Assembly (NCBI GenBank): GCA_030019415.1
Contig: JASEEX010000004.1
Span: 196 to 64,195 of the forward strand
Reading direction: 5' to 3'
Length of the DNA stretch: 64,000 bases
From: Thermodesulfovibrionales bacterium
Lineage (GTDB): Bacteria; Nitrospirota; Thermodesulfovibrionia; Thermodesulfovibrionales; SM23-35
The first letter of the stretch is position 1. Every line of letters starts with the position of its first letter. The notes beneath the pieces are model-generated. The model had not been told where the DNA came from. It did no database searches and saw only the letters and a program-made list of their open reading frames with translations. Of this stretch, positions 9,456 to 35,231 are shown piece after piece. The translations under genes and the position numbers were made by a program.

Positions 9456-9491
9456 TTTTTAAGAGTTATTAACCCAAATAAGGCAATTGAG

Positions 9492-9676: not shown

Positions 9677-9688
9677 TTAATTAATTGC

Positions 9689-12604: not shown

Positions 12605-12641
12605 ACCTTCTTCTTATCCCCATCCCCAAAAATGCATTTAT

Positions 12642-13644: not shown

Positions 13645-13791
13645 AAATAATAATAAACTATAAAACAGCCATCCAATTTAGTCAAATTTTAAGCATCAAG
13701 GAACTTGCCTTAGGACTATCAATCTTTCAATAGTGCCATTATAACTTTAAAACCCTTGATATATTTGTTAGAATTATTTAAGGAGATTATC

Positions 13792-16026: not shown

Positions 16027-16032
16027 TTTCAG

Positions 16033-16100
16033 AGTTTAAGGTTGAAAGTTTAATGATTTGTAACTTTAAACCGTTAAACTTTTAAACCTTTAAACTAAAA
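16033..16100. repeat. GTTTAAAGG/GTTGAAAGTT short-period repeat block (left of the response regulator gene)
   Basis: gtttaaggttgaaagtttaatgatttgtaactttaaaccgttaaacttttaaacctttaaac is self-complementary. aaggttgaaagtt (16038-16050) is the reverse complement of 16605-16617. Confidence 0.55.
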
Positions 16101-16114
16101 TTAGGGAGGAAGAT

Positions 16115-16534
16115 ATGCCTGAGAAGATATTAATAGTAGATGATGAACCAGATATGTTGAGGCTTCTAAGTATGATAATAAGGGAGAAGACTCCTTATGA
16201 GGTCACAACCACCAATAACCCTCTTGAGGCCCTCGAATTGACCAAAAAAGGAGGGCTTGACCTCCTTATCGCAGACTTAAAGATGCCGGGGCTAAACGGG
16301 ATAGAACTCCTTGAGTCTGTTAAGCGCTTTGATGAGGATATCCCTACAATTATCATCACAGCCTATGGCACCGTTGAAGCTGCTGTCGAGACAATGCAAA
16401 AAGGCGCCTTTGACTTTATAACAAAGCCCTTCAGGAAGGAGCAGATACTTTTTACAATAGAAAGGGCACTGAAGTGGATAAGGCTACAGAGGGAAAATAA
16501 GATGTTGAAAGAACAATTAAAGAGTGAAGTTTAA
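16115..16534 (+). CDS. Stand-alone response regulator receiver (CheY-like)
   Basis: Motifs ILIVDDEPDM, DLLIADLKMPG.NG and FDFITKPF; 139 aa with no output domain. Confidence 0.9.
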   Translation: MPEKILIVDDEPDMLRLLSMIIREKTPYEVTTTNNPLEALELTKKGGLDLLIADLKMPGLNGIELLESVKRFDEDIPTIIITAYGTVEAAVETMQKGAFDFITKPFRKEQILFTIERALKWIRLQRENKMLKEQLKSEV

Positions 16535-16617
16535 AGGTTTAATGGTTTAATGATTTAAGGGTTCAAGGTTTAACAGTCAGTAACTTTTAAACTTTAAACT
16601 ATTCAACTTTCAACCTT
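16535..16617. repeat. GTTTAAAGG/GTTGAAAGTT short-period repeat block (right of the response regulator gene)
   Basis: aggtttaatggtttaatgatttaagggttcaaggtttaac...aactttcaacctt. Its last 15 nt encode the C-terminal ...VES* of the convergent gene. Confidence 0.55.
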
Positions 16618-21912: not shown

Positions 21913-22073
21913 ATGAATAAAGGGACATTTAACAGCTAAAGGTCTTTAAATTGTCATTGCGAGGAGTCCCGAAGGCATTCGGGACGACGAACAATCTAAA
22001 AATCATACAAAAACAAAGAGATTGCTTCACCCGCCCTGGGCGGACTCGCAATGACACTTAGATCCTTTATTCA
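21913..22073. repeat. Nested palindromic element (TGTCATTGCGAG type)
   Basis: tgtcattgcgag (21952-21963) pairs with ctcgcaatgaca (22045-22056). The outer pair is tgaataaagg/cctttattca. Inner hairpins are gtcccgaaggcattcgggac and ccgccctgggcgg. Confidence 0.55.
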
Positions 22074-22108: not shown

Positions 22109-22137
22109 TTGACAAGATAGAATTCAACCATTAGAAT
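22109..22137 (+). promoter_or_regulatory. Putative sigma70-type promoter of the gntR-led cluster
   Basis: TTGACA (22109-22114), a 17-nt spacer, then TAGAAT (22132-22137). Confidence 0.4.
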
Positions 22138-22152: not shown

Positions 22153-22199
22153 GTTATAATGATATAACATTTTTTAAAAATTATTCATAATGATATAAC
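22153..22199. promoter_or_regulatory. Two operator-like sites sharing ATAATGATATAAC, 31 bp apart
   Basis: gttataatgatataac (22153-22168) is a perfect 6-4-6 palindrome, and ttcataatgatataac (22184-22199) is a half-degenerate copy. Both lie between the promoter and the gntR ATG. Confidence 0.4.
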
Positions 22200-22207
22200 T
22201 TTTTGAT

Positions 22208-22969
22208 ATGGAAGAATTAATTCGTAGAGAAAATTACCAAAAGCTTTATGTACAGCTCTGCGAAATAATGAAGAGAAAGATAGAAAATAAGGAATGGGAT
22301 GTGGGTTTTCAAATACCAACGGAGGAAGAGCTTTGTAAAATCTATGGTGTTAGCAGGGCAACTGTGAGGACTGCCATCTCAGAACTTGTTAGAGAAGGTT
22401 ATCTCACCCGCCAGCAAGGTAAAGGGACCTTTGTTAAGAAGCAGATGTCCGACGAACTTATTATGTCAACAAGTTTTCGTGAGCTTATGCTTGAGCAAGG
22501 GATTTCCTTCTCAACCGAGGTTCTTGCCCACACAACAATGATGCCTATGGACAATTTGATTACCTTGCTTGATTGTCCAGCAGATAAACATGTTATTTAT
22601 ATAAAAAGGACAACTATTGTTGAGGGCAGGCCTATTATGGTTCAGGAAATATATATACCCTTTCACATATGTCCACCACTGTTGGAAGAAGATATTGTTA
22701 ATAATTCTCTTTTTGGGCTCTTTAAGAAACATAAGGTAGATATTACACGGATAAGAAACTATTTTGGTATTACCTATCTCAGCCCTGAGGAAGCTCAAGT
22801 TTTTAGTTTGGCTGAAGGTTCATCCACCTTATTATTAAATCAGCTTTTCTTCTCAGGAGAAACGCCAGTAATGTATACACGTTCAATTAAAAGGTCTGAT
22901 AGTTTTGGGTTCTCAATAGAGTTCAAAAAAAGTTCTATCAATGAGAGGAGGTATTATGTCAAACGATGA
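22208..22969 (+). CDS. GntR-family transcriptional regulator (HutC-like, UTRA effector domain)
   Basis: The wHTH is IPTEEELCKIYGVSRATVRTAISELVREGYL.RQQGKGTFV. The C-terminal ~150 aa are UTRA-like. Confidence 0.85.
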   Translation: MEELIRRENYQKLYVQLCEIMKRKIENKEWDVGFQIPTEEELCKIYGVSRATVRTAISELVREGYLTRQQGKGTFVKKQMSDELIMSTSFRELMLEQGISFSTEVLAHTTMMPMDNLITLLDCPADKHVIYIKRTTIVEGRPIMVQEIYIPFHICPPLLEEDIVNNSLFGLFKKHKVDITRIRNYFGITYLSPEEAQVFSLAEGSSTLLLNQLFFSGETPVMYTRSIKRSDSFGFSIEFKKSSINERRYYVKR

Positions 22970-23019: not shown

Positions 23020-23541
23020 ATGCAGAGTGATAAAAAAATAAAAGATGTGATGATAGGTATCTTTGAGTATCCTCACATACCCTACTGGTTTTCCATTGAC
23101 CAGGCCATACGGATTATCAAGGTCTCATTTATCAGCGCTAAAAAATATCCTGAACCTCTGGCGATACTGGTATTTGACGAAAAGTATAACCTTCTCGGCA
23201 CATTGACCCTGAAGGATATTCTGAGGGGGCTTGAACCGAGATTTATGAGACCGACAGAAAAAGCACAGCCCTATTTAGAAGAAGAGAAGGAACTCTCTGT
23301 TATCTGGGATACCCTTTTTGCCAAGGAATCAAGAGAGCTGGCAAAGAAGTCTGTGAGCGAGATCATGGCTCCTACTAAGGTCTTTGTTGAACCTGATGAC
23401 CCTATTGCTAAAGCAGCATATCTGATGATTCACCACGATCTGGTTTTATTGCCTGTCTCAGAGGAAAAAAAGAAGTTTGTTGGTCTCGTAAGGATGACGG
23501 AGGTATTTGATGAACTGTCCAACGCAATTTTGAAGGAATAA
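23020..23541 (+). CDS. CBS-domain pair protein
   Basis: Two CBS-like repeats (IKDVM...LLGTLTLKDILRGL and VSEIMAP...FVGLVRMTEVF). Confidence 0.75.
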   Translation: MQSDKKIKDVMIGIFEYPHIPYWFSIDQAIRIIKVSFISAKKYPEPLAILVFDEKYNLLGTLTLKDILRGLEPRFMRPTEKAQPYLEEEKELSVIWDTLFAKESRELAKKSVSEIMAPTKVFVEPDDPIAKAAYLMIHHDLVLLPVSEEKKKFVGLVRMTEVFDELSNAILKE

Positions 23542-23556: not shown

Positions 23557-25080
23557 ATGGAAGAAAAAAAGGATGAAAAGATTATAGCACCTGGGTTACC
23601 ACCACCGCCAGAGGAGATAGTAGTTGCAGTTCCGAAAGTCAAGATTGACTGGAAGAGGATATTCTTCATCTTATTGGGTTTAAGCCTTTTTTTTGTTATT
23701 TATTACAGTCCTCCATGGCCTGATGCAGTCGACCCCCTGGGAAAGCATTTTCCTTTACCCAAAGAGGGAAAAGCAGCTATAGCATTGTTCCTCATGGCAG
23801 GCATTTGGTGGGTATTTGAGGTTATCCCAATTGGAGCTACAGCTATTGCTATTGGTCTGTTTCAGGCATTATTTGCTATTCGGCCTGCAAAAGAGGCATT
23901 CAAAGACTTCTTCGACCCTTCTGTCTGGTTTATCTTCAGCTCGGTAGTGATCGGTCTGGCATTTACAAAGACAGGGCTCACAAAGCGTCTCGCTGTCAAA
24001 ATGCTTGGAATTGTAGGAGAAAAAACAAGCATGATCTTGTTAGGGTCATTAATTGTTGTTGCAGGACTTGCCCTCGTCATGGCCCACACCGCTGCAGCAG
24101 CCACTGTTTTCCCTATACTCCTTGCTGTCTATGCCCTGTATGGAGAAGGAGAGAAAAAGTCAAAGTTCGGTAAAGCCCTTTTTATTGGTATGGCATATGC
24201 AGCAGGTGCTGGAAGCATTATCACATATTTAGGTGCGGCCCGTGGACCTGCAGCAGCAGGTATGTTCAAGGAATTCACAGGAAGGGAAATGGGATTCTTC
24301 CAGCTTCCCCTGTATATGTTTCCGATAGCAGCCATCATGATCTTAGCAATATGGGTTTGTTTAATGATATTCTTAAGACCAGAGAAAAAGACTATCCCTG
24401 GTCTCAAAGAAAAGGTAAAGGAGCTTGCAAAAGAAATAGGGCCTATGACCGGACCCGAAAAGTTTGTTATTGTTACTGTTTTACTCGTTGTCACCCTCAT
24501 GGGATTACAGGCCTTTGTCCCTGCCTTAAAGACAATAGACAGGGCTGCAATTATGTTGACCGGAACACTTATCTTCTTTCTGTTCAGGATATTGACAATT
24601 AAGGAACTGGAAGATATGCCATGGAACATTATCCTTCTCTTCGGAGGAGCAATAAGTATCGGTTTTTGCCTCTGGAAATCAGGAGGAGCACAGTGGCTTG
24701 CAATAGAGTGGCTTGCTATGTTTAAACAAGCACACTGGCTTATGTTTGTATTGAGTGTTGCATTTTTTGTCCTTGTAACGACTAATTTCATCATGAACGT
24801 TGCTGCGATTGCCCTTTCATTGCCCATTTCTCTTGTTATTGCAAGTTATATGGGTGTTGCTTCCGAAGTAATAGTCTATGCATCACTTGTTACAGCCGGG
24901 ATGCCATTCTTGCTTGTGATTGGAGCAGCTCCGAATGCTATTGCCTATGGCTCAGGGCAATTCAGTACAGGGGAATTTTTCAAATATGGCATAATTCCGT
25001 CTATTATTTTGATGTTTGTTCTTGGAGCAGCAATCTATTTCCTCTGGCCAATTTTGGAAATGCCGGTTTTGATTAAGTAG
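23557..25080 (+). CDS. SLC13/DASS-family anion permease
   Basis: A 507-aa polytopic protein with duplicated hairpin-type segments (AIALFLMAGIWWVFEVIP..., GAAPNAIAY) typical of DASS/ArsB-NhaD superfamily permeases. Confidence 0.75.
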   Translation: MEEKKDEKIIAPGLPPPPEEIVVAVPKVKIDWKRIFFILLGLSLFFVIYYSPPWPDAVDPLGKHFPLPKEGKAAIALFLMAGIWWVFEVIPIGATAIAIGLFQALFAIRPAKEAFKDFFDPSVWFIFSSVVIGLAFTKTGLTKRLAVKMLGIVGEKTSMILLGSLIVVAGLALVMAHTAAAATVFPILLAVYALYGEGEKKSKFGKALFIGMAYAAGAGSIITYLGAARGPAAAGMFKEFTGREMGFFQLPLYMFPIAAIMILAIWVCLMIFLRPEKKTIPGLKEKVKELAKEIGPMTGPEKFVIVTVLLVVTLMGLQAFVPALKTIDRAAIMLTGTLIFFLFRILTIKELEDMPWNIILLFGGAISIGFCLWKSGGAQWLAIEWLAMFKQAHWLMFVLSVAFFVLVTTNFIMNVAAIALSLPISLVIASYMGVASEVIVYASLVTAGMPFLLVIGAAPNAIAYGSGQFSTGEFFKYGIIPSIILMFVLGAAIYFLWPILEMPVLIK

Positions 25081-25122: not shown

Positions 25123-25494
25123 GTGGATAAGATAAGCAGTGTGGAAGAGCTCAAGGTTTTTAAAAGGAGCCATGAGTTTACTTTAAATATTTACAGGATT
25201 ACTAAACAGTCCCCACAAGCCGAAAAGTTTGGCCTTGTAGCACAGATGAGAAGAGCAGCAGCTTCTATTGGTACGAATTTATTGGAAGGCAGTCATAGAT
25301 TAAGCAGAAAGGAATTTCGTCAGTTTGTTGGTATTTCTAAAGGTTCTGCAGGTGAATTGAAATATCACTTGCTGCTTGCAAAAGATCTGGGATATTTACC
25401 AGAAAGCGAATATTTTATCTTAAGAACAGGGGTTGATCAGATTAGCATGATGCTCAACGGCTTAGCTAAATCTTTAACTGACACTAAACACTGA
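25123..25494 (+). CDS. Four-helix-bundle protein (23S rRNA intervening-sequence protein family)
   Basis: F.LNIYRITK.....EKFGL..Q.RRAA.SI..N..EG........F..F..IS.GS..E...HL.LA.DLGY is the family pattern. A GTG start lies after GAGAGGAGG. Confidence 0.85.
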   Translation: MDKISSVEELKVFKRSHEFTLNIYRITKQSPQAEKFGLVAQMRRAAASIGTNLLEGSHRLSRKEFRQFVGISKGSAGELKYHLLLAKDLGYLPESEYFILRTGVDQISMMLNGLAKSLTDTKH

Positions 25495-25512: not shown

Positions 25513-26256
25513 ATGGCCTTTGAAGATGTCCTCTGCAAGTACTTCGACAGGGTTTATACCGAGGTCGATTTTGTTCAAAAAACATACAATGCTTTAAAAA
25601 AAATCGGCTTCACTGGTGATAATGCCATAGCCTCTGTTTGTGTCTGCAGGGATGAGATCTCACAATCCGTGCGGAGCATTATAAAACATATATGGGGAGA
25701 AGCGTTTAATCTTTCGAGCCTTGCAGGGATGTTCTTTGCTGGCAGAACTGCCCTCATGGCTGAAATGCATCATGCCCCTGTTGTGGAAGGCAAGGAACGT
25801 TATGTCTATTATGCCTTACCTCATACAGCAACCAGTCCCGAGGGCCAGATAGGAGTTTGTAAGCGGAAGGGCAGAGAAGGGGAATCTACCGCATGCGGTG
25901 CCCTGAGTGCCTTTCAGAAGGAGATGGCCACAATTAGTTCAAAGTTGAAAGTTGAAAGTTTAAAGTTAAATAACAAAATTGACAATGATGATATTGAAAT
26001 GAGCCTTATAAGAATGCGTTTGGTTAAGGAAATCCCATATGGTCATGTTCCAGACCTCCTTGAGTTAACAAAGATAGCACAGAAGGTTATCCAGGCAGAC
26101 CTCGAAAATGCACTAAAGGCTATTGTTGATACGAAGAAGTGTGATTATGCTGTCATGACAGGCATACAGATAAATGGACCTGACGGTAACTACATCGCCC
26201 CTGTATCGACTTATGGTGTTGTGAGTGGTGTTAGACAGGAGGTGAACTTAATTTAA
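25513..26256 (+). CDS. LCIB/LCIC-like protein (beta-carbonic-anhydrase fold), putative
   Basis: Ordered motifs SVCVCRDEI, WGEAFNLSSLAGMFFAGRT, MHHAP, YYALPHTA and GESTACGAL match my recollection of the LCIB family Cys-His-Cys zinc-site pattern. This has not been verified by a search. Confidence 0.5.
   Translation: MAFEDVLCKYFDRVYTEVDFVQKTYNALKKIGFTGDNAIASVCVCRDEISQSVRSIIKHIWGEAFNLSSLAGMFFAGRTALMAEMHHAPVVEGKERYVYYALPHTATSPEGQIGVCKRKGREGESTACGALSAFQKEMATISSKLKVESLKLNNKIDNDDIEMSLIRMRLVKEIPYGHVPDLLELTKIAQKVIQADLENALKAIVDTKKCDYAVMTGIQINGPDGNYIAPVSTYGVVSGVRQEVNLI
25936..25974. repeat. In-frame GTTGAAAGTT-type low-complexity insertion inside the LCIB-like ORF
   Basis: agttcaaagttgaaagttgaaagtttaaagttaaataac encodes SSKLKVESLKLNNK. 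The same repeat flavour occurs at 16033-16617 and 26256-26300. Confidence 0.55.
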
Positions 26257-26319
26257 AAGTTGAATTCCAAGGGTTTAAGGTTAAAAGGTTTTAACCATTA
26301 AATCAAAGAAAGGGATTAA

Positions 26320-26799
26320 ATGAGATATATCATTACATTTCTCCTACTTTTTTTGAACTGGGTAATATGGTCAGGCATGTTAGATGCCTTTCACCTCTCT
26401 TTGGGAGTTATTTCCTGTATTCTCGTAACCTATATGACCCATGATATTTTATTCAAACGTGAAAAGTTCTCCTCCAAACATATAGTAGAAGTAATCCGGT
26501 TTATTAAATATATACCTTGGCTTTTATACCAGATCTTTCTGTCTAATATTCATGTTGCCTCCCTGGTTCTGAATCCCAAGATGCCCATTAAACCTGAATT
26601 AATAAGATTCAAGACTAAACTAAAAAAGGATATTTCCTTGACAACTTTTGCCAACTCTATCACCCTCACCCCTGGTACCATAACCGCGGATATTATAGAA
26701 GGAGAATTCTATGTTCATGCCCTTAGCAAGAAGGTTGCAGACGATCTCCTGGCAGGTGAGATGGAAAATAGGGTAGCTCATATATTTATGGAGGATTAG
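26320..26799 (+). CDS. mrpE: Mrp/Mnh antiporter-type subunit E
   Basis: TM N-terminus with W..W.G.... and the TLTPGTITADI motif. Confidence 0.8.
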   Translation: MRYIITFLLLFLNWVIWSGMLDAFHLSLGVISCILVTYMTHDILFKREKFSSKHIVEVIRFIKYIPWLLYQIFLSNIHVASLVLNPKMPIKPELIRFKTKLKKDISLTTFANSITLTPGTITADIIEGEFYVHALSKKVADDLLAGEMENRVAHIFMED

Positions 26800-27105
26800 A
26801 TGGAAAATTTCTTTTTGGCAATCGGTCTGATTTTGGGTTTTCTGGTTTTGCTCTGTCTCTATCGTGGAATATTCGGACCAACGGTTTTGGACAGAATAAT
26901 AAGTATTAGTGTTATTGGCACCAAGACCACGATTATCTTAGCCCTCATGGGCTTTATCTATGGAAGAATGGATATGTTTGTGGATATCTCCATAGCATAT
27001 GCCTTATTAAATTTCATTGCGACCCTGGCTGCTGCAAAATTCTTTCGTACGAGGAAAAGCATAATTCCAGGGGCAAAATACTTTAAAGAGAGGGAAGTTA
27101 AATAA
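26800..27105 (+). CDS. mrpF: Mrp/Mnh subunit F
   Basis: GPTVLDRIISISVIGTKT and DISIAYALLNFI, with 3 TM helices. It abuts mrpE directly. Confidence 0.8.
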   Translation: MENFFLAIGLILGFLVLLCLYRGIFGPTVLDRIISISVIGTKTTIILALMGFIYGRMDMFVDISIAYALLNFIATLAAAKFFRTRKSIIPGAKYFKEREVK

Positions 27106-27432
27106 ATGTCTATTTTAGCCATAATTTTTATCTTGACAGGGGTTTTTTTCTTTACAACAGCAACTATAGGGCTTCTACGTTTTCCTGATTTTTATTGTAG
27201 GATGCAAGCTACTGGAAAAGGCGATACTCTTGGAGCACTTCTTTCACTTACAGGTTTGGCATTATACAACCTGCATCATGGATTTTCACTGCCAACAATA
27301 CTTGTGAGCATTAAGATAATGTTCATTGCTATTTTTATCTTTGTAGCAAACCCTACTTCTACCCATGCAATTACAAAGTCAGGGTTGGACTGCGGTGTTG
27401 AGCCTTTTACAAAGGAGGAGGTAATCAGATGA
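27106..27432 (+). CDS. mrpG: Mrp/Mnh subunit G
   Basis: GLLRFPDFYCRMQATGKGDTLGA is the MnhG signature. Confidence 0.85.
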   Translation: MSILAIIFILTGVFFFTTATIGLLRFPDFYCRMQATGKGDTLGALLSLTGLALYNLHHGFSLPTILVSIKIMFIAIFIFVANPTSTHAITKSGLDCGVEPFTKEEVIR

Positions 27433-27674
27433 TCTGGCAATTAGATATTATTATCCTCATCATCGTTGTTATCAGTGCTATAGCTGCTATAACTGTAAAG
27501 GATCTCTTGAGTTCAGCCATTCTCCTTGAGGCATATAGCTTCCTTATGTGCCTCCTCTGGACAGAAATGGGCGCAGTAGATGTTGCCTTTACCGAAGCTG
27601 CTGTGGGAGCTGGTATTAGTACAGCGTTCTTTATTGGTGCCATATATCAAACGACCAGGAGGACAAAGGATTGA
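27429..27674 (+). CDS. MrpB-N/MbhD-like small membrane subunit (DUF4040-like)
   Basis: An 81-aa, 3-TM protein with AVDVAFTEAAVGAGIST. Its start overlaps the mrpG stop by 4 nt. Confidence 0.65.
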   Translation: MIWQLDIIILIIVVISAIAAITVKDLLSSAILLEAYSFLMCLLWTEMGAVDVAFTEAAVGAGISTAFFIGAIYQTTRRTKD

Positions 27675-27940
27675 GGTTTTTTGCACTAATTGTTGTTCTC
27701 ATAACAGGTACCCTGCTTCTATATGCCACAGTAGACATGCCCGATTGGGGCGATCCCTACTCTCCTGCTAACACCCATGTATCACCCAGATATATAGAAA
27801 AGACGATTGAAGAGACGGCAACACCAAACATAGTCACCTCAGTACTTGCAGATTACAGGGGCTATGATACCCTGGGTGAGACTACGGTAATCTTCACAGC
27901 AGGAGTTGTATGCATACTTCTCTTAAGGAGGTTTAAGTGA
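27671..27940 (+). CDS. MbhE-like small membrane subunit
   Basis: NIVTSVLADYRGYDTLGETTVIF is typical of MnhB-related subunits. The TTG start overlaps the preceding stop (TTGA). Confidence 0.6.
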   Translation: MRFFALIVVLITGTLLLYATVDMPDWGDPYSPANTHVSPRYIEKTIEETATPNIVTSVLADYRGYDTLGETTVIFTAGVVCILLLRRFK

Positions 27941-28392
27941 CTATAGAATTTAAAGATGTAATCATACAGACCATTTGCAGACTTCTTACACCACCCATTC
28001 AGCTTTATGCCTTGTATGTAATTGCTCATGGACATTACAGCCCCGGCGGGGGTTTCCAGGGAGGTTGTATTCTTGGAGCAAGTTTTATCCTGATGGTTAT
28101 TGCCTATGATATAGGAGAGGTAAAAAGGCGGATGGCTGAAAAAATGAATACCATATTTTGCAGTCTCGGAGTGATTATATACTCGGGGATTGGTGCAATA
28201 TGCCTGATACTCGGCGCAAATTATCTGGATTATGGCATACTTCACAAAATTCTGCCTGTAAATCCTGTAAGGGCCAGAGCCCTGGGAACTCTGGGCATTG
28301 AGATCGGAGTAGGGATTGCGGTAATGGCTGTTATGATTTCTATCTTTCTTAATATCGCCTCAGGAGGCGAACACGAAGGAGCATTGGAATAA
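27937..28392 (+). CDS. mrpB: Mrp/Mnh subunit B (MbhF-like)
   Basis: The HGH.SPGGGFQGG motif; the GTG start overlaps the preceding stop (GTGA). Confidence 0.8.
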   Translation: MTIEFKDVIIQTICRLLTPPIQLYALYVIAHGHYSPGGGFQGGCILGASFILMVIAYDIGEVKRRMAEKMNTIFCSLGVIIYSGIGAICLILGANYLDYGILHKILPVNPVRARALGTLGIEIGVGIAVMAVMISIFLNIASGGEHEGALE

Positions 28393-28799
28393 TGGGGACT
28401 ATAGAATTCATTATCAGTAAATATAATTACTGGATTTATGTGCTACTTATGATGATAGGATTCTACGCCATGATAGCAAAGAGAAATCTGGTAAAGAAGA
28501 TTGTAGGAATGAATATATTTCAGACAGCTATAATACTTTTTTTTGTTTCTACCGGTTCTAAGAAGGGTGCCAGCATACCTATCATTCAGAATGGACATGG
28601 AGATGTTGTAAGTCATGCGGTGAATGCTGCCCAATATGTGAATCCCTTACCCCATGTACTCATGCTTACAGCCATTGTGGTTATGGTAAGCACTTTTGGA
28701 GTTGCCCTGGCATTGATAATCATGATTTATAGAAAATACGGAACCTTAGAGGAAGATGAAATTTTTGAAATGTCAGAAATTTTAAGGCTGAGAAAATGA
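28392..28799 (+). CDS. mrpC: Mrp/Mnh subunit C (NuoK-like)
   Basis: NLVKKIVGMNIFQTAIILFFV; 3 TM helices with an insert. Confidence 0.8.
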   Translation: MGTIEFIISKYNYWIYVLLMMIGFYAMIAKRNLVKKIVGMNIFQTAIILFFVSTGSKKGASIPIIQNGHGDVVSHAVNAAQYVNPLPHVLMLTAIVVMVSTFGVALALIIMIYRKYGTLEEDEIFEMSEILRLRK

Positions 28800-30292
28800 T
28801 AACTCATGCCCCGATTTTGATTATAGTTACCCCTTTGATAAGTGCTTTTTTTAACATCCTGATTGGATTGTGGCGAAGGTGGCTTTGCTATCCCTTTGTG
28901 ATTACAGTACTCAGTGCATGTGTATTTTCATCTATCGCTATTCTGGATACGGTTATAAACTATGGTACTATTCATTACAAGCTTGGTGGTTGGACTCCTC
29001 CTTGGGGGATAGAATATGTAATAGACCACCTCAATGCCTTTATGGCGGTTATTGTATCATTTATCAGCCTCATTGTGGCGGTCTATTCAAAGAGGAGCAT
29101 TGAACAGGAACTATCTGAGAAGATTGTTTATTTCTATACCATCTATCTTTTGCTTGTAACAGGGCTTTTAGGCATCATTGTAACAGGTGATGTATTTAAT
29201 CTCTATGTGTTCCTCGAGATTGCATCACTGGCAGGCTATGCCCTTATAGCTATAGGAGAGGATAGGGCACCACTCGCAAGTTTTGAATATGTGATAATAG
29301 GAACCGTTGGTGCCTGCTTTTATCTTCTAGGCGTTGGCTATCTCTATATAGTTACCGGCTCGCTTAATATGACTGACCTATCACAGCTATTACCCAATCT
29401 TTATCATTCTAAAGTGGTATTGGTTGCCTTTGCCTTCCTTATGGTAGGAGTAGCTGTAAAGATGGCTTTTTTTCCTTTACATGTATGGCTTCCGGATGCC
29501 TACACCTATGCCCCATCCACAGTAAGTGCATTGGTTGCCGCCACAATGACCAAGGTGGGAGCCTATGTCATGATAAGGATTATGTTCACGCTATTTAAAC
29601 CTTATTTTTCCATAGAGTTGCTACCAGTGACTACCGTACTCGGCTGGATAGCCGTAGTTGCTATGATGTTCGGTTGCATATTTGCCATGGCTCAATCTGA
29701 TCTTAAAAGGATGCTCTGTTACATCCTAATTGCAGAGGTTGGTTATATCGTACTGGGTGTAAGTTTTGCGAACCGTATGGGCCTTACTGGTGCTATTCTC
29801 CACATCCTTAATGACGCCTTTATGATGGCATGCCTGTTTTCAGTAGCAGGAGCCATCATGTATAAGATTGGAAAAAGAGATATCAAAGATTTCAGGCATC
29901 TGCACAGGAAGATGCCCTTTACCATGGCTGCCTTTACAATAGCTGCCCTCTCCGTAATAGGGATACCGCCTACCTGCGGCTTTTTCAGCAAATGGTATTT
30001 GATCTTAGGGGCAATCGATGCTCAACAATGGATATTTGCAGTTGCGCTTATGATAAGCAGTTTGTTAAGTGCTATAGTATTTTTCAGGGTTATAGAGAAT
30101 ACATACTTTGAGCCTCGTGTGCCTGTTCACGCTCACAATGGGGGAACTCATGAAGAAATCAAAATGGATGAGGCACCACTGAGCATGCTTATTCCCATAT
30201 TCATTATGGTTGCGGGAATACTCACATTGGGTATCTTTAGTGGAAAGATTATCTCTAATGTAATTCAGTTTGCAGTTCCAGCAAGCTTTTAG
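28796..30292 (+). CDS. mrpD: Mrp/Mnh subunit D, antiporter-like (NuoM/N, proton-conducting membrane transporter family), copy 1
   Basis: A 498-aa polytopic protein with FPLHVWLPDAYTYAPSTVSAL and LKRMLCYILIAEVGY motifs. Confidence 0.85.
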   Translation: MITHAPILIIVTPLISAFFNILIGLWRRWLCYPFVITVLSACVFSSIAILDTVINYGTIHYKLGGWTPPWGIEYVIDHLNAFMAVIVSFISLIVAVYSKRSIEQELSEKIVYFYTIYLLLVTGLLGIIVTGDVFNLYVFLEIASLAGYALIAIGEDRAPLASFEYVIIGTVGACFYLLGVGYLYIVTGSLNMTDLSQLLPNLYHSKVVLVAFAFLMVGVAVKMAFFPLHVWLPDAYTYAPSTVSALVAATMTKVGAYVMIRIMFTLFKPYFSIELLPVTTVLGWIAVVAMMFGCIFAMAQSDLKRMLCYILIAEVGYIVLGVSFANRMGLTGAILHILNDAFMMACLFSVAGAIMYKIGKRDIKDFRHLHRKMPFTMAAFTIAALSVIGIPPTCGFFSKWYLILGAIDAQQWIFAVALMISSLLSAIVFFRVIENTYFEPRVPVHAHNGGTHEEIKMDEAPLSMLIPIFIMVAGILTLGIFSGKIISNVIQFAVPASF

Positions 30293-30304
30293 TTTTACTT
30301 TTTG

Positions 30305-30435
30305 GTCATTCCCGCGCAAGCGGGAATCCAGCCCCGTGTTTAATACGGAGCGTTACTGCGAAAGCAGGGAACTATACAAAGAAAATTGATTCCTGCTGGA
30401 TTTTATCCCGTACCAAGATACGGGGCAGGAATGAC
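30305..30435. repeat. GTCATTCC...GGAATGAC palindromic element between two mrpD genes
   Basis: gtcattcc (30305-30312) pairs with ggaatgac (30428-30435). Inner pairs are gggaatccag/ctggatt and ccccgt/acgggg. Same family as 7008-7091. Confidence 0.6.
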
Positions 30436-30458
30436 AGATGGAGGAACATTAGGAAAAA

Positions 30459-31952
30459 GTGATGGAAGTTATAAGTTCCATAAGGCCTCTGTTAGCTGTC
30501 ATGGTCTCTCTGATTGCGGCCTGTCTTATTGTTCTTACCGGCGAGAGAGCAAGAAATCTCAGGGAATTATGGACAATTCTGGCCTCGGTGTCTAAATTCA
30601 TAATTGTCGCCTCTATGATTCCTTTTATCATTCAAGGTAAGACTCTTGAATACACTATCATCTCCCTTGCCCCCGGGCTTTTATTACAATTAAGAGTAGA
30701 TGCCTTTGGCCTTTTGTTTGGCGTTCTGGCATCTACTCTCTGGATCGCCACCTCACTGTATTCCATAGGCTATATGAGGGGTCTGAATGAGCACGCCCAG
30801 ACCAGATATTTCTTCTGTTTTGCCATAGCCCTTTCTGCAACTATGGGGATTGCCTTTGCTGGAAATCTCTTAACCCTTTTTGTTTTCTATGAAGTATTAA
30901 CCATAGCTACCTATCCCTTAGTAGCTCATAAAGAAACACCAGAGGCCATAAAGGCAGGCAGGAAATATCTTGCCTATACATTAACGGCAGGTGTAGTTAT
31001 CCTTTTAGCTTCAGCGATTACTTACAGATTGACCGGGACTCTTGATTTTAAACCTGGTGGATTTTTAGCAGGCCATGCATCAGCTGATATGCTCCGATTT
31101 CTTTTTGTAGCCTTAATTATTGGTTTTGGTGTAAAGGCAGCAATTATGCCCATACATGAATGGCTACCTACTGCCATGATTGCCCCTACACCTGTGAGTG
31201 CCCTTCTCCATGCCGTTGCTGTAGTGAAGGCGGGTGTATTTGGTGTCTTAAGGGTTATCCTCTATGTCTTTGGCCCAGGGCTTCTCCATGACTCAGGGCT
31301 CTGGCTGATATTGGCCTATTTTGTCTCCTTTACAATAATTGGGGCTGCCATGCTTGCATTAGCGCAGGATAACCTAAAGAGGAGGCTTGCCTTTTCTACC
31401 ATAAATAACTTGGCAATCATCATCCTCGGGGCGGCCCTGCTTTCTCCGAGTGCTATAAAAGGTGGGATGCTACATATGGCCAACCATGGCTTTATGAAAA
31501 TCACATTGTTTTTTGTTGCCGGGGCTATATATGTAAAGACTCATAAGGAAAACGTAAGTGAGCTGGATGGATTGGGCAGACAGATGCCTTTAACTATGGG
31601 TTCATTTGCCATAGGGGCTATGGGGGTAACCGGAATACCACCTCTCTGTGGATTTATAAGTAAATGGTATTTGTGCCTCGGTTCACTTGAGGCACACGAG
31701 ATTGTCTTTCTTTTCGTCTTTCTTACCAGTGCATTTCTGGATGCAGCTTTCTTCTTTCCCATAGTGTACAGAGCATTCTTTAAGAATCCAAAAGAAGATG
31801 TAAACCCACATTTCAATGAGGCATCTATGTTTATGGTAATCCCCCTCATGACCACTGCCGTTGCTTCTTTAGTACTGGGAATTTTTCCGAATGCCCTTGT
31901 GCATTTCTATGAGATAGTTACTTTAGCAGTGCAGAACATACTGGGAGGTTAA
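30459..31952 (+). CDS. mrpD: Mrp/Mnh subunit D, antiporter-like, copy 2
   Basis: A 497-aa polytopic protein with MPIHEWLPTAMIAPTPVSALLHA and LKRRLAFSTINN motifs. The start is GTG 30459 or ATG 30462. Confidence 0.85.
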   Translation: MMEVISSIRPLLAVMVSLIAACLIVLTGERARNLRELWTILASVSKFIIVASMIPFIIQGKTLEYTIISLAPGLLLQLRVDAFGLLFGVLASTLWIATSLYSIGYMRGLNEHAQTRYFFCFAIALSATMGIAFAGNLLTLFVFYEVLTIATYPLVAHKETPEAIKAGRKYLAYTLTAGVVILLASAITYRLTGTLDFKPGGFLAGHASADMLRFLFVALIIGFGVKAAIMPIHEWLPTAMIAPTPVSALLHAVAVVKAGVFGVLRVILYVFGPGLLHDSGLWLILAYFVSFTIIGAAMLALAQDNLKRRLAFSTINNLAIIILGAALLSPSAIKGGMLHMANHGFMKITLFFVAGAIYVKTHKENVSELDGLGRQMPLTMGSFAIGAMGVTGIPPLCGFISKWYLCLGSLEAHEIVFLFVFLTSAFLDAAFFFPIVYRAFFKNPKEDVNPHFNEASMFMVIPLMTTAVASLVLGIFPNALVHFYEIVTLAVQNILGG

Positions 31953-31988
31953 GGAAAAAACACGAGAAAAAAGATAGGAGGATAAACA

Positions 31989-32117
31989 ATGCATGAAGAA
32001 GGAGAAGAAATAATGGAACTCACACATGAGCCTGTACCAATATACAGGAAGATATTTTTTATAGCGGTTATAATTGGTGCTCTATATCTCGGGATTATCT
32101 TTTTGAATACGTTTTGA
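31989..32117 (+). CDS. Unlisted 42-aa single-TM ORF
   Basis: ATG at 31989 lies 8 nt after AGGAGG. It translates to MHEEGEEIMELTHEPVPIYRKIFFIAVIIGALYLGIIFLNTF*. It is below the ORF-track size cut-off. Confidence 0.4.
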   Translation: MHEEGEEIMELTHEPVPIYRKIFFIAVIIGALYLGIIFLNTF

Positions 32118-32148
32118 GCAATATAGCAAACGCATTAAATACTTTTAT

Positions 32149-32178
32149 TGTCATTGCGAGGCGCAGCCGAAGCAATCC
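32149..32178. repeat. TGTCATTGCGAG-type half element
   Basis: tgtcattgcgaggcgcagccgaagcaatcc has the same 5' 13 nt as 21952-21964. Confidence 0.5.
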
Positions 32179-32198
32179 CATATTGAGGAGATATAGAA

Positions 32199-32462
32199 AT
32201 GGTGAAAAAGGAAATTGAGACAAAAAAAGAGTATTTTTTTGATAAACCAAAAAATGTAAAAGGACTATTCAGGTTTTTTTACGCATTGCTTTTAGTCTTA
32301 CTGGTCATTGAGTTCTTTATCTATAAGCATACTTATTTCCCATGGGAAGAGTGGCCTGGATTTTATGCAGTATTCGGATTTTTAGCCTTTGTCGCCCTGA
32401 TTTTTGCAGCAAAATATATATTGCGTCCTATCGTAAAGAGGAAGGAGGATTACTATGATTAA
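32199..32462 (+). CDS. Small 2-TM membrane protein of the Mrp-type cluster
   Basis: An 87-aa protein with two hydrophobic helices. Its stop overlaps the next gene by 8 nt. Confidence 0.5.
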   Translation: MVKKEIETKKEYFFDKPKNVKGLFRFFYALLLVLLVIEFFIYKHTYFPWEEWPGFYAVFGFLAFVALIFAAKYILRPIVKRKEDYYD

Positions 32463-34293
32463 CCCTGTTCCTCCAGCAGCTATATTCATCATCGGGGCCT
32501 TGCTCATCCCGCTCTTAAAGGGAAGGCTAAAAAGTATATATCTATTACTGTTGCCCATTGTTGGCTTCATAAATCTGATCAATATCCCCGAAGGTATGCA
32601 CTGGGTTGTCAGATTCCTCGATTATGAGCTTGTTTTCGGAAAGGTTGACAGGCTAAGTCTCCTTTTTGGATATATCTACCATCTGATAGCTTTTATAATC
32701 ATTCTATATTCACTTCATCTCAAAGATAATGCCCAACATGTGGCTGGCTTCATTTATGCCGGAAGCTCCCTGGGGGTTGTTTTTGCAGGAGACCTTATTT
32801 CTCTTTATCTCTTCTGGGAGATGATGACCTTTAGCGCAGTAGTTTTAGTATGGTCAAACAAGACAGGGAAATCAATTGCTGCAGGATTCAGATACCTTCT
32901 GGTTCACGTCTTTGGAGGCCTTTGCCTTCTAGCGGGCATTGTCCTTTATGTGACTAACACAGGATCCATTGAATTTGGGTATATAGGATTAAAGGACTTG
33001 GCGACTTTTCTTATATTTATTGGATTTGGCGTAAATTGTGCCTGGCCAGGGCTGCATCCATGGCTTCCTGATGCCTATCCTGAGTCAACAATAACAGGTG
33101 CCGTATTCATGTGGACCTTTACGACAAAGACTGCTGTCTATGTCCTGGCAAGGGCATTTCCAGGTACCGAAGCCCTGATATGGATCGGGACAATAATGAC
33201 GGCATTTCCCATCTTTTTTGCAGTAATTGAAAACAACCTCAGAAGGGTTCTTTCCTACAGCCTGATCAACCAGGTAGGATACATGGTTTGTGGCATTGGT
33301 ATAGGGACAGAACTTTCCATCAATGGCACTGTGTCCCATGTCTTCTGCCATATCCTTTACAAGGGGCTACTTGTTATGTCCATGGGTGCTGTCATGTATC
33401 GGACAGGAAAGATAAATTGCACAGATCTGGGGGGACTCTATAAAAGTATGCCCTTAACATCCCTATTCTGCATAGTGGGTGCGGCATCCATCTCTGGCTT
33501 TCCACTATTTAGCGGTTTTGTCTGTAAATCAATGGTCTTGGAGGGGGCTGCATTAGGAGGTATGAGCATTATATGGTTTATCCTTATGTTCGCCTCAGTA
33601 GGTGTCCTGGAACACGCAGGCATCAAAGTGCCTTATTACGCCTTTTTCTCCCATGACTCTGGAATCCGAACAAGAGAGGCTCCTCTCAACATGCTCCTTG
33701 CCATGGGAATAGCTGCCTTTTTGTGTATCTTCATCGGTGTGTTTCCTGGCCCTCTGTATAGTCTTCTCCCATATCATGTGGATTTTGAACCATATACAAC
33801 CTTCCATGTGGTGGGCATGAGCCAGCTACTTTTCTTCGGTGCATTGGCCTACGTACTTTTTATACTCTCAGGGGTCTTCCCGGCGGAAATAAGGGCTATC
33901 AATCTTGATGCTGATTGGTTCTATAGAAAGGCAGGTACTGCCTTTTATCGGTTCTGCAATGTTCCTTTGAATAGCTTCAGGCTTAAAATGCAGGGTTTCC
34001 TATCTAAAGTAGTAGATTCTGTTGCAAAATTGGGTAGAGATCCACTCTTTATCCCTGAGTTAGCAATAAGATACGTCCATCTGAAGATCGCGCAGATATT
34101 AATCCCTGTAGCTAAACCTCAGGGTGCAAAGGAAAGACTTGCTGAATTAGAGTTCAAACTCAGGCGTATCCAAAAAATAAGTGAAAGTGGAAGAGAATAT
34201 GGTGCAGACATACCCAGAAGGCCTATAGGTCTGGGAGTTCTCTTAGCCTTTGTCTTAATATTTTTTTATCTTTTGATTTACATGCTGTTCTGA
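32455..34293 (+). CDS. Antiporter-like subunit, copy 3 (MrpA/NuoL-like, with C-terminal amphipathic segment and terminal TM helix)
   Basis: 612 aa with WPGLHPWLPDAYPESTITGAVFM and LRRVLSYSLINQVGY motifs. The last ~130 aa are charged or amphipathic and end in the TM helix LGVLLAFVLIFFYLLIYMLF. Confidence 0.8.
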   Translation: MINPVPPAAIFIIGALLIPLLKGRLKSIYLLLLPIVGFINLINIPEGMHWVVRFLDYELVFGKVDRLSLLFGYIYHLIAFIIILYSLHLKDNAQHVAGFIYAGSSLGVVFAGDLISLYLFWEMMTFSAVVLVWSNKTGKSIAAGFRYLLVHVFGGLCLLAGIVLYVTNTGSIEFGYIGLKDLATFLIFIGFGVNCAWPGLHPWLPDAYPESTITGAVFMWTFTTKTAVYVLARAFPGTEALIWIGTIMTAFPIFFAVIENNLRRVLSYSLINQVGYMVCGIGIGTELSINGTVSHVFCHILYKGLLVMSMGAVMYRTGKINCTDLGGLYKSMPLTSLFCIVGAASISGFPLFSGFVCKSMVLEGAALGGMSIIWFILMFASVGVLEHAGIKVPYYAFFSHDSGIRTREAPLNMLLAMGIAAFLCIFIGVFPGPLYSLLPYHVDFEPYTTFHVVGMSQLLFFGALAYVLFILSGVFPAEIRAINLDADWFYRKAGTAFYRFCNVPLNSFRLKMQGFLSKVVDSVAKLGRDPLFIPELAIRYVHLKIAQILIPVAKPQGAKERLAELEFKLRRIQKISESGREYGADIPRRPIGLGVLLAFVLIFFYLLIYMLF

Positions 34294-34349: not shown

Positions 34350-35231
34350 ATGAAACTACAATGTCCCATTCCAAAGATACTGCTTCCTGTAGATGGAAGC
34401 GAACATTCCAAGCGGGCTGTGCAGTTTGCCGGATGTCTGGGGGTATCCTTGGGTAAGAGTCTCTCAGGCCTCACCCTGCTTCATGTTATGGCAAAGGTCA
34501 AAGGTAAACATATTGAAGAGAAAATCAGGCCTTTTTTAGATGAAGCAGAAAAGACCCTAATAGATTTGGGAATCGGGGTCGAGATTGAAAAACCTATAGT
34601 ATATGGGGACCCGGCTCGGGAAATTGTCCGCATAGCTGATGAAGGAAAGTTTTCAACTATTATAATGGCCAGAAGGGGGCTATCGGAAATAAAGGGTTTT
34701 CTCCTGGGTAGTATTACCAGCAAGGTTGTCCATTCAGCAAGCAGGCAAATTGTGTATATAGTAGGCCATAGGATTCTGAAAGATAAGGCATGTCCTGTTC
34801 CTAAAATCCTTATCCCTGTTGATGGCTCAATCTATTCCATGAGAGGTGTAGAAGATGCTGCCTGTTTAGCAGCGGGTTTAAAAACCTCTGTGAGCAAGAT
34901 AACCCTCTTTAGGGTTATCAATCTGTCAGTGTATTTGAAAAGGGTTAAAGAAGGAATAGAACCTGAGGAGGAGGCAAAGAGAATACTGGATGAAGCCAAG
35001 GAAGTGTTCCGTCAGTCAGGCATTCCTGAAGAACTTATTACTACTAAAGTGAGTGTCGGAAGAAAACCTGCAGAGGAGATTCTCAAAGAGGCCGAAGAAG
35101 GATATTATAACCTCATCATTATGGGTCGTAAGGGACGATCTGCCATCAAAGATCTCATACTGGGAGGGGTAAGTACAACTGTTCTTCAGCACTGCCAGAA
35201 CCCAACCGTTGCTATTGTGAGCAGCGAGTAA
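34350..35231 (+). CDS. Tandem universal stress protein (2 x UspA domain)
   Basis: Two repeats of ILLPVDGS..S..A...A ... GSI/VS..V..H....V..V. Confidence 0.85.
   Translation: MKLQCPIPKILLPVDGSEHSKRAVQFAGCLGVSLGKSLSGLTLLHVMAKVKGKHIEEKIRPFLDEAEKTLIDLGIGVEIEKPIVYGDPAREIVRIADEGKFSTIIMARRGLSEIKGFLLGSITSKVVHSASRQIVYIVGHRILKDKACPVPKILIPVDGSIYSMRGVEDAACLAAGLKTSVSKITLFRVINLSVYLKRVKEGIEPEEEAKRILDEAKEVFRQSGIPEELITTKVSVGRKPAEEILKEAEEGYYNLIIMGRKGRSAIKDLILGGVSTTVLQHCQNPTVAIVSSE

Follow-up and report, generated by a model that had tools for sequence, protein, structure and literature searches.

An Operon That Pairs a DASS Permease with an LCIB-Type Protein Beside an Exchangeable Transporter Slot in a Thermodesulfovibrionales Bacterium

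Introduction

The window analyzed here is a stretch of 64,000 nucleotides (nt) of DNA from a Thermodesulfovibrionales bacterium (assembly GCA_030019415.1, contig JASEEX010000004.1, positions 196 to 64,195 of the forward strand). It contains genes for a GntR-type regulator, a CBS-pair protein, a permease of the DASS/SLC13 family, an LCIB-type protein with the fold of beta-carbonic anhydrases (CA), a multi-subunit Mrp antiporter and a universal stress protein (USP). The family memberships, the operon structure, the conservation statistics and the swapping of the cassette that follows the LCIB gene were established by the analysis. Among 80 related loci, the DASS and LCIB genes stay together and the Mrp genes are commonly replaced by other transporters. 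This DASS-LCIB module with swappable Na+ extruders is widespread and uncharacterized.

Genes of the Operon

The following features make up the operon and its control region. The genes of the Mrp block, which lie between the spacer and the USP gene, are given further below.

22109-22137, + strand: best-scoring sigma-70-like promoter of the promoter scan, TTGACA-17-TAGAAT
22156-22200, no strand assigned: two direct repeats of ATAATGATATAAC, a candidate operator, located after the promoter-like site and before the start of gntR
22208-22969, + strand: GntR/HutC-type regulator with a UTRA effector domain (Pfam, NCBIfam), found upstream in most loci
23020-23541, + strand: CBS-pair protein, putative nucleotide-sensing permease regulator (Pfam), directly 5' of DASS in nearly all loci
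23557-25080, + strand: DASS/SLC13 permease of a distinct subfamily (TIGR00785, Pfam)
25123-25494, + strand: 23S_rRNA_IVP four-helix-bundle (bAvd-like) gene (Pfam E=1.5e-35)
25513-26256, + strand: LCIB/theta-type beta-CA-fold protein of 247 amino acids (aa), predicted to be cytosolic (Pfam, PDB alignments, AlphaFold2, Foldseek)
26257-26319, no strand assigned: LCIB-mrpE spacer of 63 nt, with a ribosome-binding site and a perfect 18-nt palindrome, GGTTAAAAGGTTTTAACC, at 26279-26296
34350-35231, + strand: tandem USP (Pfam), conserved at the right-hand end in a subset of loci

An earlier sequence-only reading of the window had suggested that everything from GntR to the USP (22.2-35.2 kb) may be one unit. 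This agrees with the sole strong promoter-like site being located 5' of gntR and with the lack of a hairpin before mrpE. The counts from the promoter and terminator scans were near shuffle expectation, and only the 11/12 promoter 5' of gntR was used. The distance from the LCIB stop to the mrpE start is 63 nt (26257-26319), as had been noted, and no terminator-like hairpin was found within it. By ORF (open reading frame) coordinates, the corresponding spacers in relatives are shorter still, about 15 nt in locus L008 and about 13 nt in L022. Thus, co-transcription of LCIB and mrp is plausible. The GGTTAAAAGGTTTTAACC palindrome and the ATAATGATATAAC direct repeats are both candidate operator sites. 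The palindrome was set aside as an operator for GntR, since it has no copy 5' of gntR. A search of Rfam at gathering and E-value thresholds did not identify a riboswitch, such as the Na+ riboswitch, in 21-36 kb of the window or in four related loci.

LCIB-Type Protein

The ORF at 25513-26256 carries every motif that the sequence-only reading had quoted for it, and the LCIB-family identity proposed there is borne out by PF18599 (LCIB_C_CA), which was matched with E=7.1e-54 and 182.9 bits against a cut-off of 25, over positions 4-220 of 223 of the profile. The closest matches among PDB sequences were the Chlamydomonas proteins CrLCIB (5k5w, E=1.3e-39) and CrLCIC (5b5x, 8.5e-39), and the diatom protein PtLCIB4 was also matched (5b5y, 3.8e-10). 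The zinc site was examined through alignments to PDB sequences. C45, H104 and C128 and their surroundings line up with CRDE, PH and ACGAL in CrLCIB and CrLCIC, which fits the Cys-His-Cys triad that had been predicted. C45, R46, D47, E48, H104 and C128 are invariant among 23 aligned homologs. The Asp that follows the first Cys (D47) is therefore present throughout this set, with the ligands assigned from alignment only. An AlphaFold2 model was obtained with a pLDDT of 82.9 and a pTM of 0.82. Its top Foldseek match, as expected for an LCIB protein, was CrLCIB (5k5w, E=1.6e-19, TM 0.77/0.84), followed by CrLCIC and then PtLCIB4 (TM 0.78). A canonical beta-CA, 1ekj, was distant (TM about 0.45). 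The profile match, the ligands and the fold all place the protein in the LCIB family, and CA activity is predicted for it.

The exact protein is filed at NCBI as a 'hypothetical protein' of a Thermodesulfovibrionales metagenome-assembled genome (MAG). Proteins of the PF18599 type are numerous, with about 1,100 cluster representatives at E<=1e-3. The members that have been studied differ in activity. CrLCIB and CrLCIC showed no CA activity in vitro (PMC5876011), and PtLCIB3 and PtLCIB4 are CA-active (PMC5876011, PMC9614477). The motif C-R-D-E is common to the window protein and CrLCIB/C. The diatom-type homolog 6kfs has C-S-D-E, and Ser47 of PtLCIB4 is taken from the name of its S47R mutant (5b60).

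Within the LCIB ORF, at 25938-25978, a short AT-rich repeat (GTTGAAAGTTTAAAG-like) is present in frame and encodes a window-specific loop insert, SSKLKVESLKLNNKI. Other copies are found in several intergenic regions (16028-16096, 16528-16617, 26260-26300 and 47241-47281). The insert is the low-confidence part of the AlphaFold2 model and looks like a repeat insertion that was tolerated in a variable loop. It was considered as an interface with Mrp and rejected, as it is window-specific, low in confidence, missing from other Mrp-linked LCIBs and a copy of an AT-rich repeat.

DASS Permease and the IVP Gene

The permease upstream of LCIB is placed in the DASS family by TIGR00785 (206.8 bits against a cut-off of 198.6) and by Pfam Na_sulph_symp (E=5.5e-51). 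In VcINDY and NaDC3, Na+ and substrate are bound at Ser-Asn-Thr/Val signatures in two hairpins, and the window protein lacks these. Its first hairpin signature (residues ~176-178) is A-H-T as opposed to S-N-T in VcINDY/NaDC3, and its second is M-N-V as opposed to S-N-V in VcINDY, with the P-N motif retained. The AHT signature was found in 110 of 120 close DASS homologs. It may mark a different coupling ion or substrate. Since S-N-T is replaced by A-H-T, neither the known DASS substrates nor Na+ coupling can be assumed.

The IVP gene that lies between DASS and LCIB was missing from the gene list of the sequence-only reading. It occupies the same position in L061 and L161, follows LCIB in L004, L007 and L009, and is absent elsewhere. 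Because its copies are at differing positions among relatives, it is likely a mobile passenger that was inserted between DASS and LCIB.

Mrp Block

The block that follows LCIB contains twelve genes, all on the forward strand.

26320-26799, + strand: mrpE (Pfam MNHE)
26800-27105, + strand: mrpF (Pfam MrpF_PhaF)
27106-27432, + strand: mrpG (Pfam PhaG_MnhG_YufB)
27429-27674, + strand: MbhD-like ORF (Pfam MbhD; PDB 6cfw_D, 6u8y_D)
27671-27940, + strand: MbhE-like ORF (Pfam MbhE; PDB 6cfw_E, 6u8y_E; MrpA 7d3u_A 714-761 and 6z16_A 763-813)
27937-28392, + strand: mrpB (Pfam MnhB)
28392-28799, + strand: mrpC/NuoK-like (Pfam Oxidored_q2)
28796-30292, + strand: first MrpD-like antiporter subunit (Pfam Proton_antipo_M, NCBIfam)
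30459-31952, + strand: second MrpD-like antiporter subunit (Pfam Proton_antipo_M, NCBIfam)
31991-32119, + strand: 42-aa protein with a single transmembrane (TM) segment and the motif EL.H.PVPGY (tblastn; same position in 12 Mrp loci, a called gene in L163)
32199-32462, + strand: 87-aa two-TM protein specific to this Mrp variant (33-69% identity across Mrp loci)
32455-34293, + strand: third antiporter-like subunit of 612 aa (NCBIfam NF009310; Pfam Proton_antipo_M; hydropathy)

The co-directional arrangement of 26320-34293 that had been described is accurate, with 4-nt overlaps at 27429, 27671, 27937 and 28796 and an 8-nt overlap at 32455. In addition, there is one 1-nt overlap (28392), and two junctions abut. 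The module set is complete: MNHE, MrpF_PhaF, PhaG_MnhG_YufB, MbhD, MbhE, MnhB, Oxidored_q2 and three Proton_antipo_M proteins. MrpB had been thought to be split over three ORFs. Of these, only 27937-28392 is MrpB proper; 27429-27674 and 27671-27940 are MbhD-like and MbhE-like by Pfam and PDB matches. PF13244 and PF20501 are the Pfam domains of the C-terminal part of MrpA, and the two ORFs are equivalents of the MrpA C-terminal domain. The 612-aa subunit matches the equivalog NF009310, 'Na+/H+ antiporter subunit D', with 729.9 bits against a cut-off of 564. Hydropathy agrees with the NuoL/MrpA-like C-terminal end that had been proposed for it: residues 483-585, about 100 in all, lack TM helices and include amphipathic segments, and a terminal TM helix follows at 588-612.

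The absence of redox subunits from the block also stands, as Pfam scans of 13.7-37.9 kb did not find any hydrogenase or Nuo peripheral subunit. No ORF for a NuoB/D/H/I-like redox module was found beside Mrp within the same interval, where the flanks are LCIB and USP. Na+(K+)/H+ antiport by the block can be inferred from its family membership and from the TrkA/TrkH context of the same variant elsewhere. Between the window Mrp proteins and their counterparts at other loci, the identity is 65-89%.

The 42- and 87-aa membrane proteins sit between the second and third antiporter-like subunits and are kept across many metagenome loci of this variant. Neither has a family assignment, and searches of Pfam and NCBIfam gave no match for the 87-aa protein. 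The gaps at 30293-30458 (166 nt) and 31953-32198 contain inverted-repeat elements that resemble miniature inverted-repeat transposable elements (MITEs), and these gaps are not present in orthologous operons such as that of L035. The MITE-like elements, GTCATTGCGAG...CTCGCAATGAC and GTCATTCCCGC...GGCAGGAATGAC, are located at 21955-22058 (5' of gntR), 30293-30458 and 32150-32180.

LCIB Neighborhoods in Other Genomes

An LCIB alignment was scanned against one genome per GTDB species, which gave 77 loci. The window proteins, together with neighbor types that were recognized later, were mapped onto these by tblastn. There was enough sequence for a call upstream of LCIB in 73 loci and in the downstream slot in 71. 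DASS is located directly 5' of LCIB in 63 of the 73, usually with CBS and GntR/UTRA genes before it. The relationship also holds in the other direction. A further five loci were picked through the DASS protein, independently of the LCIB scan, and LCIB was immediately 3' in all five (gaps of 10-135 nt). The DASS-LCIB link is therefore strong and reciprocal. GntR, CBS and DASS had been listed as mere upstream context of LCIB. They are on the same strand, as stated, but DASS is in fact the constant partner of LCIB.

The slot after LCIB is occupied by a transporter in 58 of the 71 loci. The most frequent is a 455-aa MamN/ArsB-like permease of the IT superfamily (21 loci), often with its own CBS protein. 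The Na+/H+ antiporter NhaD was found in 16, a 578-aa MamN/ArsB-like permease in 11, Mrp in seven, a V-type ATPase operon in two (subunits A, B, I and K, of which A, I and K were validated), and a CitMHS_2 permease in one. Nothing was recognized in the remaining 13. The NhaD slot gene was validated with NCBIfam NF038006, where it scored 165 bits (cut-off 80), and the 16 genes were assigned to this class by 69-100% identity to the validated member. NhaD, Mrp and the V-type ATPase share cation translocation, which is either Na+/H+ exchange or the pumping of Na+ or H+. Full V-type ATPase operons are found 3' of LCIB in L016 (10742-17874), L026 and L161 (10868-17994). Their K subunits carry T-Q, Q and E-T residues, which presumably correspond to the Na+ site of Enterococcus hirae NtpK. 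A phmmer search of PDB missed NtpK, and this point is given low weight.

The adjacency of LCIB and Mrp, on which the sequence-only reading had built its proposal, is largely not conserved in relatives. Mrp follows LCIB in only seven of the 71 informative loci, and one more has Mrp between DASS and LCIB. This second order, CBS-DASS-Mrp-LCIB, is present in an Actinomycetota locus (L058) and in a metagenome locus (L127). Three independent loci with precomputed Pfam annotation show the range of arrangements. L161 is a V-ATPase variant with IVP between DASS and LCIB, L162 is a CBS-MamN variant, and L163 is an Mrp variant with exactly the architecture of the window, including two tandem PEP-synthase-like (phosphoenolpyruvate-synthase-like) genes and a called 42-aa gene. 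Cultured Thermodesulfovibrio and Thermodesulfobacterium carry the DASS-LCIB locus, which is of the MamN-like variant in Thermodesulfovibrio yellowstonii and Thermodesulfobacterium thermophilum. In genomes of the Thermodesulfovibrio yellowstonii type, the order is PEP-synthase-like(-) / GntR-CBS-DASS-LCIB-[578-aa permease]-USP, so that Mrp is swapped for one permease. The USP gene follows the slot in L033, L035, L053, L062, L064, L065, L158, L159 and L165, which include both Mrp and MamN variants.

The co-location was also examined from the Mrp side. MrpE orthologs were aligned and the alignment was scanned against metagenomes, which gave 80 loci, and 54 of these had more than 900 nt 5' of mrpE, a length sufficient to reveal an adjacent LCIB. 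On contigs of sufficient length, the Mrp variant is the one seen in the window, down to the 42- and 87-aa genes. LCIB or DASS was near Mrp in just one of the 80 (L127), with 54 informative upstream, so this Mrp variant is widespread without LCIB. Several of the seven loci inspected have TrkA/TrkH, USP or response regulators as neighbors, an ordinary cation-homeostasis context.

In a crude neighbor-joining tree of 69 LCIB proteins, built without support values, the Mrp-linked LCIBs are found at no fewer than six separate positions among NhaD- and MamN-linked LCIBs. The nearest relatives of the window LCIB (65-67% identical) are NhaD- or MamN-linked, and none is Mrp-linked. The Mrp proteins of the window, in contrast, share 65-89% identity with their counterparts elsewhere. 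Thus, the cassette after LCIB has been exchanged repeatedly, and LCIB has not co-diversified with Mrp. The link of the Mrp module to the pair is nonetheless real at the level of the operon, given the short spacers, the lack of a hairpin, the USP gene after both variants and the occurrence of two gene orders in two phyla.

Sensor Kinase and PEP-Synthase-Like Genes

The left side of the locus includes four more genes.

13756-16026, + strand: dCache_1-PAS-HisKA-HATPase sensor kinase at the left edge of the frame (Pfam)
16115-16534, + strand: response regulator of 139 aa (ORF, sequence)
16603-19161, - strand: PEP-synthase-like dikinase paralog 2, with PPDK_N, PEP-utilizers and an orphan C-terminal domain (Pfam)
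19229-21793, - strand: PEP-synthase-like dikinase paralog 1, divergent from gntR (homology of residues ~120-569)

The sensor kinase and the Response_reg gene hold the same positions in L158, L159 and L162-L166. The two PEP-synthase-like paralogs are 73% identical, and the tandem pair is also present in L163 (1499-6889). A gene of this type is divergent from GntR in 34 of 45 loci and, because of this, probably belongs to the gntR regulon. The ATP-grasp and phosphohistidine swivel domains of the dikinase are recognizable, and the match to PEP synthase is limited to residues ~120-569. The C-terminal ~285 aa had no match in Pfam, in PDB (sequence or profile) or by fold. This orphan domain has the invariant motifs RLGYH..E, NDNY, FKGGGA and R..RR.

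Proposed Role of the Operon

The operon can be read as a module for Na+-driven uptake of an anion, probably bicarbonate, in which DASS and LCIB are the core and Mrp is an exchangeable accessory Na+/H+ antiporter. We consider the chances of this reading to be about even. The genes would make up a single long operon with the order gntR-cbs-dass-(ivp)-lcib-mrp(12 genes)-usp, and to its left lies the conserved frame of dCache kinase, response regulator and divergent PEP-synthase-like gene. The functional core would be the DASS permease and the cytosolic LCIB-type beta-CA, and Mrp would fill the slot held elsewhere by NhaD, a MamN/ArsB-like permease or a V-ATPase. DASS would import an anion with Na+, with HCO3- (or CO3 2-) as the likeliest candidate, and LCIB would equilibrate HCO3- + H+ with CO2 + H2O in the cytoplasm. 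Mrp would work as a normal electrogenic Na+/H+ antiporter that takes the co-transported Na+ out and brings in the H+ used by dehydration. If the anion is bicarbonate, the H+ imported by the antiporter is the H+ consumed by dehydration, and the three activities would be stoichiometrically complementary. The CBS protein could exert post-translational control, as a counterpart of a transporter-regulating nucleotide sensor, and GntR could exert transcriptional control. In this proposal, the Na+ coupling, the direction of transport, the bicarbonate substrate, the CA activity and the lack of physical contact between LCIB and Mrp are all inferred. Precedents are known for its parts. The NdhR regulon of cyanobacteria includes an Mrp-like mnh operon, the proposed Na+ extruder for bicarbonate uptake by SbtA (PMC4390856, PMC11360081). 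From the juxtaposition or fusion of SulP and Can2, transport of bicarbonate has been deduced (PMC6458275, citing Felce & Saier 2004).

Several points weigh against the bicarbonate proposal. Bicarbonate is a candidate substrate for DASS by analogy. The HutC-type GntR/UTRA regulator, the dCache kinase and the PEP-synthase-like enzyme point to an organic ligand. The nearest structurally characterized LCIBs, CrLCIB/C, are inactive in vitro, and the window protein has their C-R-D-E motif. Cultured Thermodesulfovibrio, which carry the locus, are without autotrophic pathways (PMC5165239). Lastly, 32 of the 71 slots contain MamN/ArsB-like permeases, which may carry either a cation/H+ or an anion.

Some of these same points lead to a possible, though somewhat doubtful, alternative, in which DASS imports another anion (a 2-oxo acid, a dicarboxylate or sulfate), the dikinase activates an organic substrate, and Mrp just recycles Na+. 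LCIB could then supply HCO3- or remove CO2 for a linked (de)carboxylation, or buffer pH. The regulator, the kinase and the PEP-synthase-like enzyme (34 of 45 loci) are all conserved neighbors, dicarboxylates, citrate or sulfate are the substrates of those DASS relatives whose function is known, and Thermodesulfovibrio is heterotrophic (PMC5165239). Many of the hosts reduce sulfate, and in sulfate reducers DASS proteins count as candidate importers of sulfate (PMC5840216). However, with S-N-T changed to A-H-T in this subfamily, the known specificities need not hold. The conserved unit does not contain a carboxylase gene, and the tight reciprocal coupling of DASS and LCIB resembles that of bicarbonate permease-CA pairs. 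Sulfate in particular lacks a DASS-type transporter candidate in T. yellowstonii (Marietou et al. 2018, Table 1, PMC5840216). Sulfate on its own was dropped as a reading for want of specific support, as the same study has no link to CA and zero DASS for T. yellowstonii. It is improbable that the locus is instead a module for alkaline-pH or Na+ stress, in which Mrp, NhaD or the V-ATPase would acidify the cytoplasm or expel Na+, DASS would let Na+ re-enter, LCIB would provide CO2/HCO3- buffering and the USP would mark a stress regulon. The USP gene is conserved at the end of the unit, many of the source MAGs are from deep groundwater and hot springs, the Mrp variant is found elsewhere beside TrkA/TrkH, and Mnh has been reported solely from the alkaliphilic Thermodesulfovibrio strain N1 (PMC5165239). 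Stress protection would, however, leave the DASS-LCIB pairing, the PEP-synthase-like gene and GntR unexplained, and it overlaps mechanistically with a Na+ circuit and does not exclude one.

The remaining alternatives concern the adjacency itself. The sequence-only reading had proposed that LCIB docks on the Mrp membrane arm, where ion flow would drive unidirectional hydration of CO2 as in DabAB or CupA/NDH-1MS, which would add a third system to those known for vectorial CO2 hydration. Eight genome loci, the window and L163 have LCIB and Mrp in one operon, and a beta-CA fold together with PF00361 subunits are the component classes of DAB. The same Mrp variant is associated in two gene orders, LCIB-Mrp in Nitrospirota and DASS-Mrp-LCIB in Actinomycetota L058/L127, which points to selection for the association. 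Against this, the adjacency is found in just ~11% of LCIB loci, non-homologous transporters fill the slot elsewhere, and the reverse search found LCIB near the Mrp variant in one of 80 loci (54 informative upstream). The Mrp-linked LCIBs are scattered in the tree, do not form a clade and share no insertion, and the nearest LCIBs of the window protein accompany NhaD or MamN. The full canonical set of Mrp subunits is sufficient for antiport, and Pfam found no DabA or CupA homolog in the block. Docking is therefore unsupported, and we regard it as very improbable. The same low standing is given to its more specific form, in which, in the minority of genomes with Mrp beside the DASS-LCIB pair, LCIB may bind the 612-aa NuoL-like subunit or the two small TM proteins and cation flow makes hydration vectorial in an independently evolved manner. 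The least probable explanation is a fortuitous one, that a housekeeping Mrp operon landed beside an unrelated LCIB operon. The Mrp variant is found mostly elsewhere, and the MITE-like elements and the IVP passenger show that the locus is prone to recombination. Yet the LCIB-mrpE spacers in L022 and L008 are very short, recruitment of the Mrp block took place in two phyla and with two gene orders, the USP gene is kept 3' of both the Mrp and MamN variants, and the slot systematically contains ion transporters (58 of 71 loci).

Significance

Full-text searches of the literature did not find a paper linking LCIB with Mrp, DASS or bacteria, and LCIB/theta-CAs are discussed in the literature searched for algae, diatoms and hornworts only. 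The regulon described here (kinase, PEP-synthase-like, GntR, CBS, DASS, LCIB and cation transporter) is conserved across MAGs of Nitrospirota, Thermodesulfobacterium, Actinomycetota and Acidobacteriota. It contains a bacterial LCIB clade that is nearer to Chlamydomonas LCIB than the diatom proteins are. Should bicarbonate be the anion carried by DASS, the regulon would represent a new class of Na+-dependent system for taking up inorganic carbon, in anaerobes that live in alkaline subsurface waters rich in bicarbonate, and it would provide a bacterial context for the function and origin of LCIB. If docking were true, DAB and CupA/NDH-1MS would be joined by a third energy-coupled CA. Behind one permease-CA pair, NhaD, Mrp and V-ATPase replace one another, a natural experiment on the energizing of secondary transport. 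With the locus present in cultured Thermodesulfovibrio and Thermodesulfobacterium, it is directly testable. Without evidence of conservation, the presence of a CA gene beside PF00361 subunits is no basis for proposing a DAB-like machine.

Other Features of the Window

A repeat family of about 57 nt has direct and inverted intergenic copies at 203-259, 9486-9542, 9626-9682, 12636-12692 and 12744-12800, and resembles a REP or a terminator-like element. A gene for a transposase of the IS256 family (Transposase_mut) is present at 39232-40491 on the - strand, and a TrkA-TrkH pair for K+ uptake is located at 54021-56816. A 36-nt tandem repeat of about three copies is found at 43745-43852.

Comparison with Known Systems

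There are two known systems that combine a beta-CA-like zinc protein gene with neighboring genes for PF00361 antiporter-like subunits, DAB and CupA/B-NDH-1MS. In the window, by contrast, the PF00361 subunits are within a complete Mrp, the adjacency is not conserved and the constant partner is a secondary permease. DAB pairs DabA with a single PF00361 subunit, and the Cup systems have a CupA/ChpY protein together with NdhD3/F3 in NDH-1. Pfam gave no match to DabA (PF10070/DUF2309) on any ORF of the block, and Pfam scans of the block found neither the CupA/ChpY family nor NDH-1 core subunits. Collinearity is seen with MBH/MBS of Pyrococcus, where the order E-F-G-MbhD-MbhE-B-C-D corresponds to mbhA-H and the subunits match 6cfw and 6u8y. 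Unlike MBH/MBS, the window block is without a hydrogenase or sulfane-reductase module and has three antiporter-like subunits and the 42- and 87-aa TM proteins. Since the defining subunits are absent, the block is not of the DAB, Cup-NDH-1 or Mbh type. Its subunits also match those of the Group 1/2 Mrp complexes of Anoxybacillus flavithermus and Dietzia sp. (7d3u, 6z16).

The LCIB protein shares its family, its fold and the Cys-His-Cys site with LCIB/LCIC of Chlamydomonas and PtLCIB3/4 (theta-CA) of diatoms. CrLCIB/C are its nearer relatives, with E~1e-39 and 32% identity, and PtLCIB4 is more remote (E~1e-10). Unlike the algal proteins, it is bacterial and cytosolic, has no transit peptide, and is linked in an operon to transporters as opposed to being part of a pyrenoid CO2-concentrating mechanism.

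The SulP-CA pairs (Rv3273 type; can2-sulP of Acidithiobacillus) are similar in that a permease of a sulfate/anion family is invariably beside a beta-class CA (PMC6458275). The window has DASS/IT instead of SulP/APC, an LCIB/theta-type protein instead of a canonical beta-CA, and a cation transporter 3' of the pair. In cyanobacteria, SbtA/SbtB and BicA together with the NdhR/CcmR-regulated mnh operon (slr2006-slr2013) likewise combine a Na+-coupled permease, a small regulator and a redox-free Mrp-type complex (PMC4390856, PMC11360081). As in the window, additional MrpD-like subunits and a split MrpA are found in mnh. The two systems are alike in function only, as the window permease is a DASS and not an SbtA (PF05982) or a SulP. 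The small partner is a CBS protein and not the PII-like SbtB, and the CA is encoded within the operon. In the window, the genes are in one operon under GntR, and the Na+ extruder is swappable between genomes. The hosts here are anaerobic Nitrospirota, Thermodesulfobacteriota and Actinomycetota. By analogy, the region would work most like SbtA/BicA plus Mnh and the SulP-CA pairs, with other proteins and in anaerobes.

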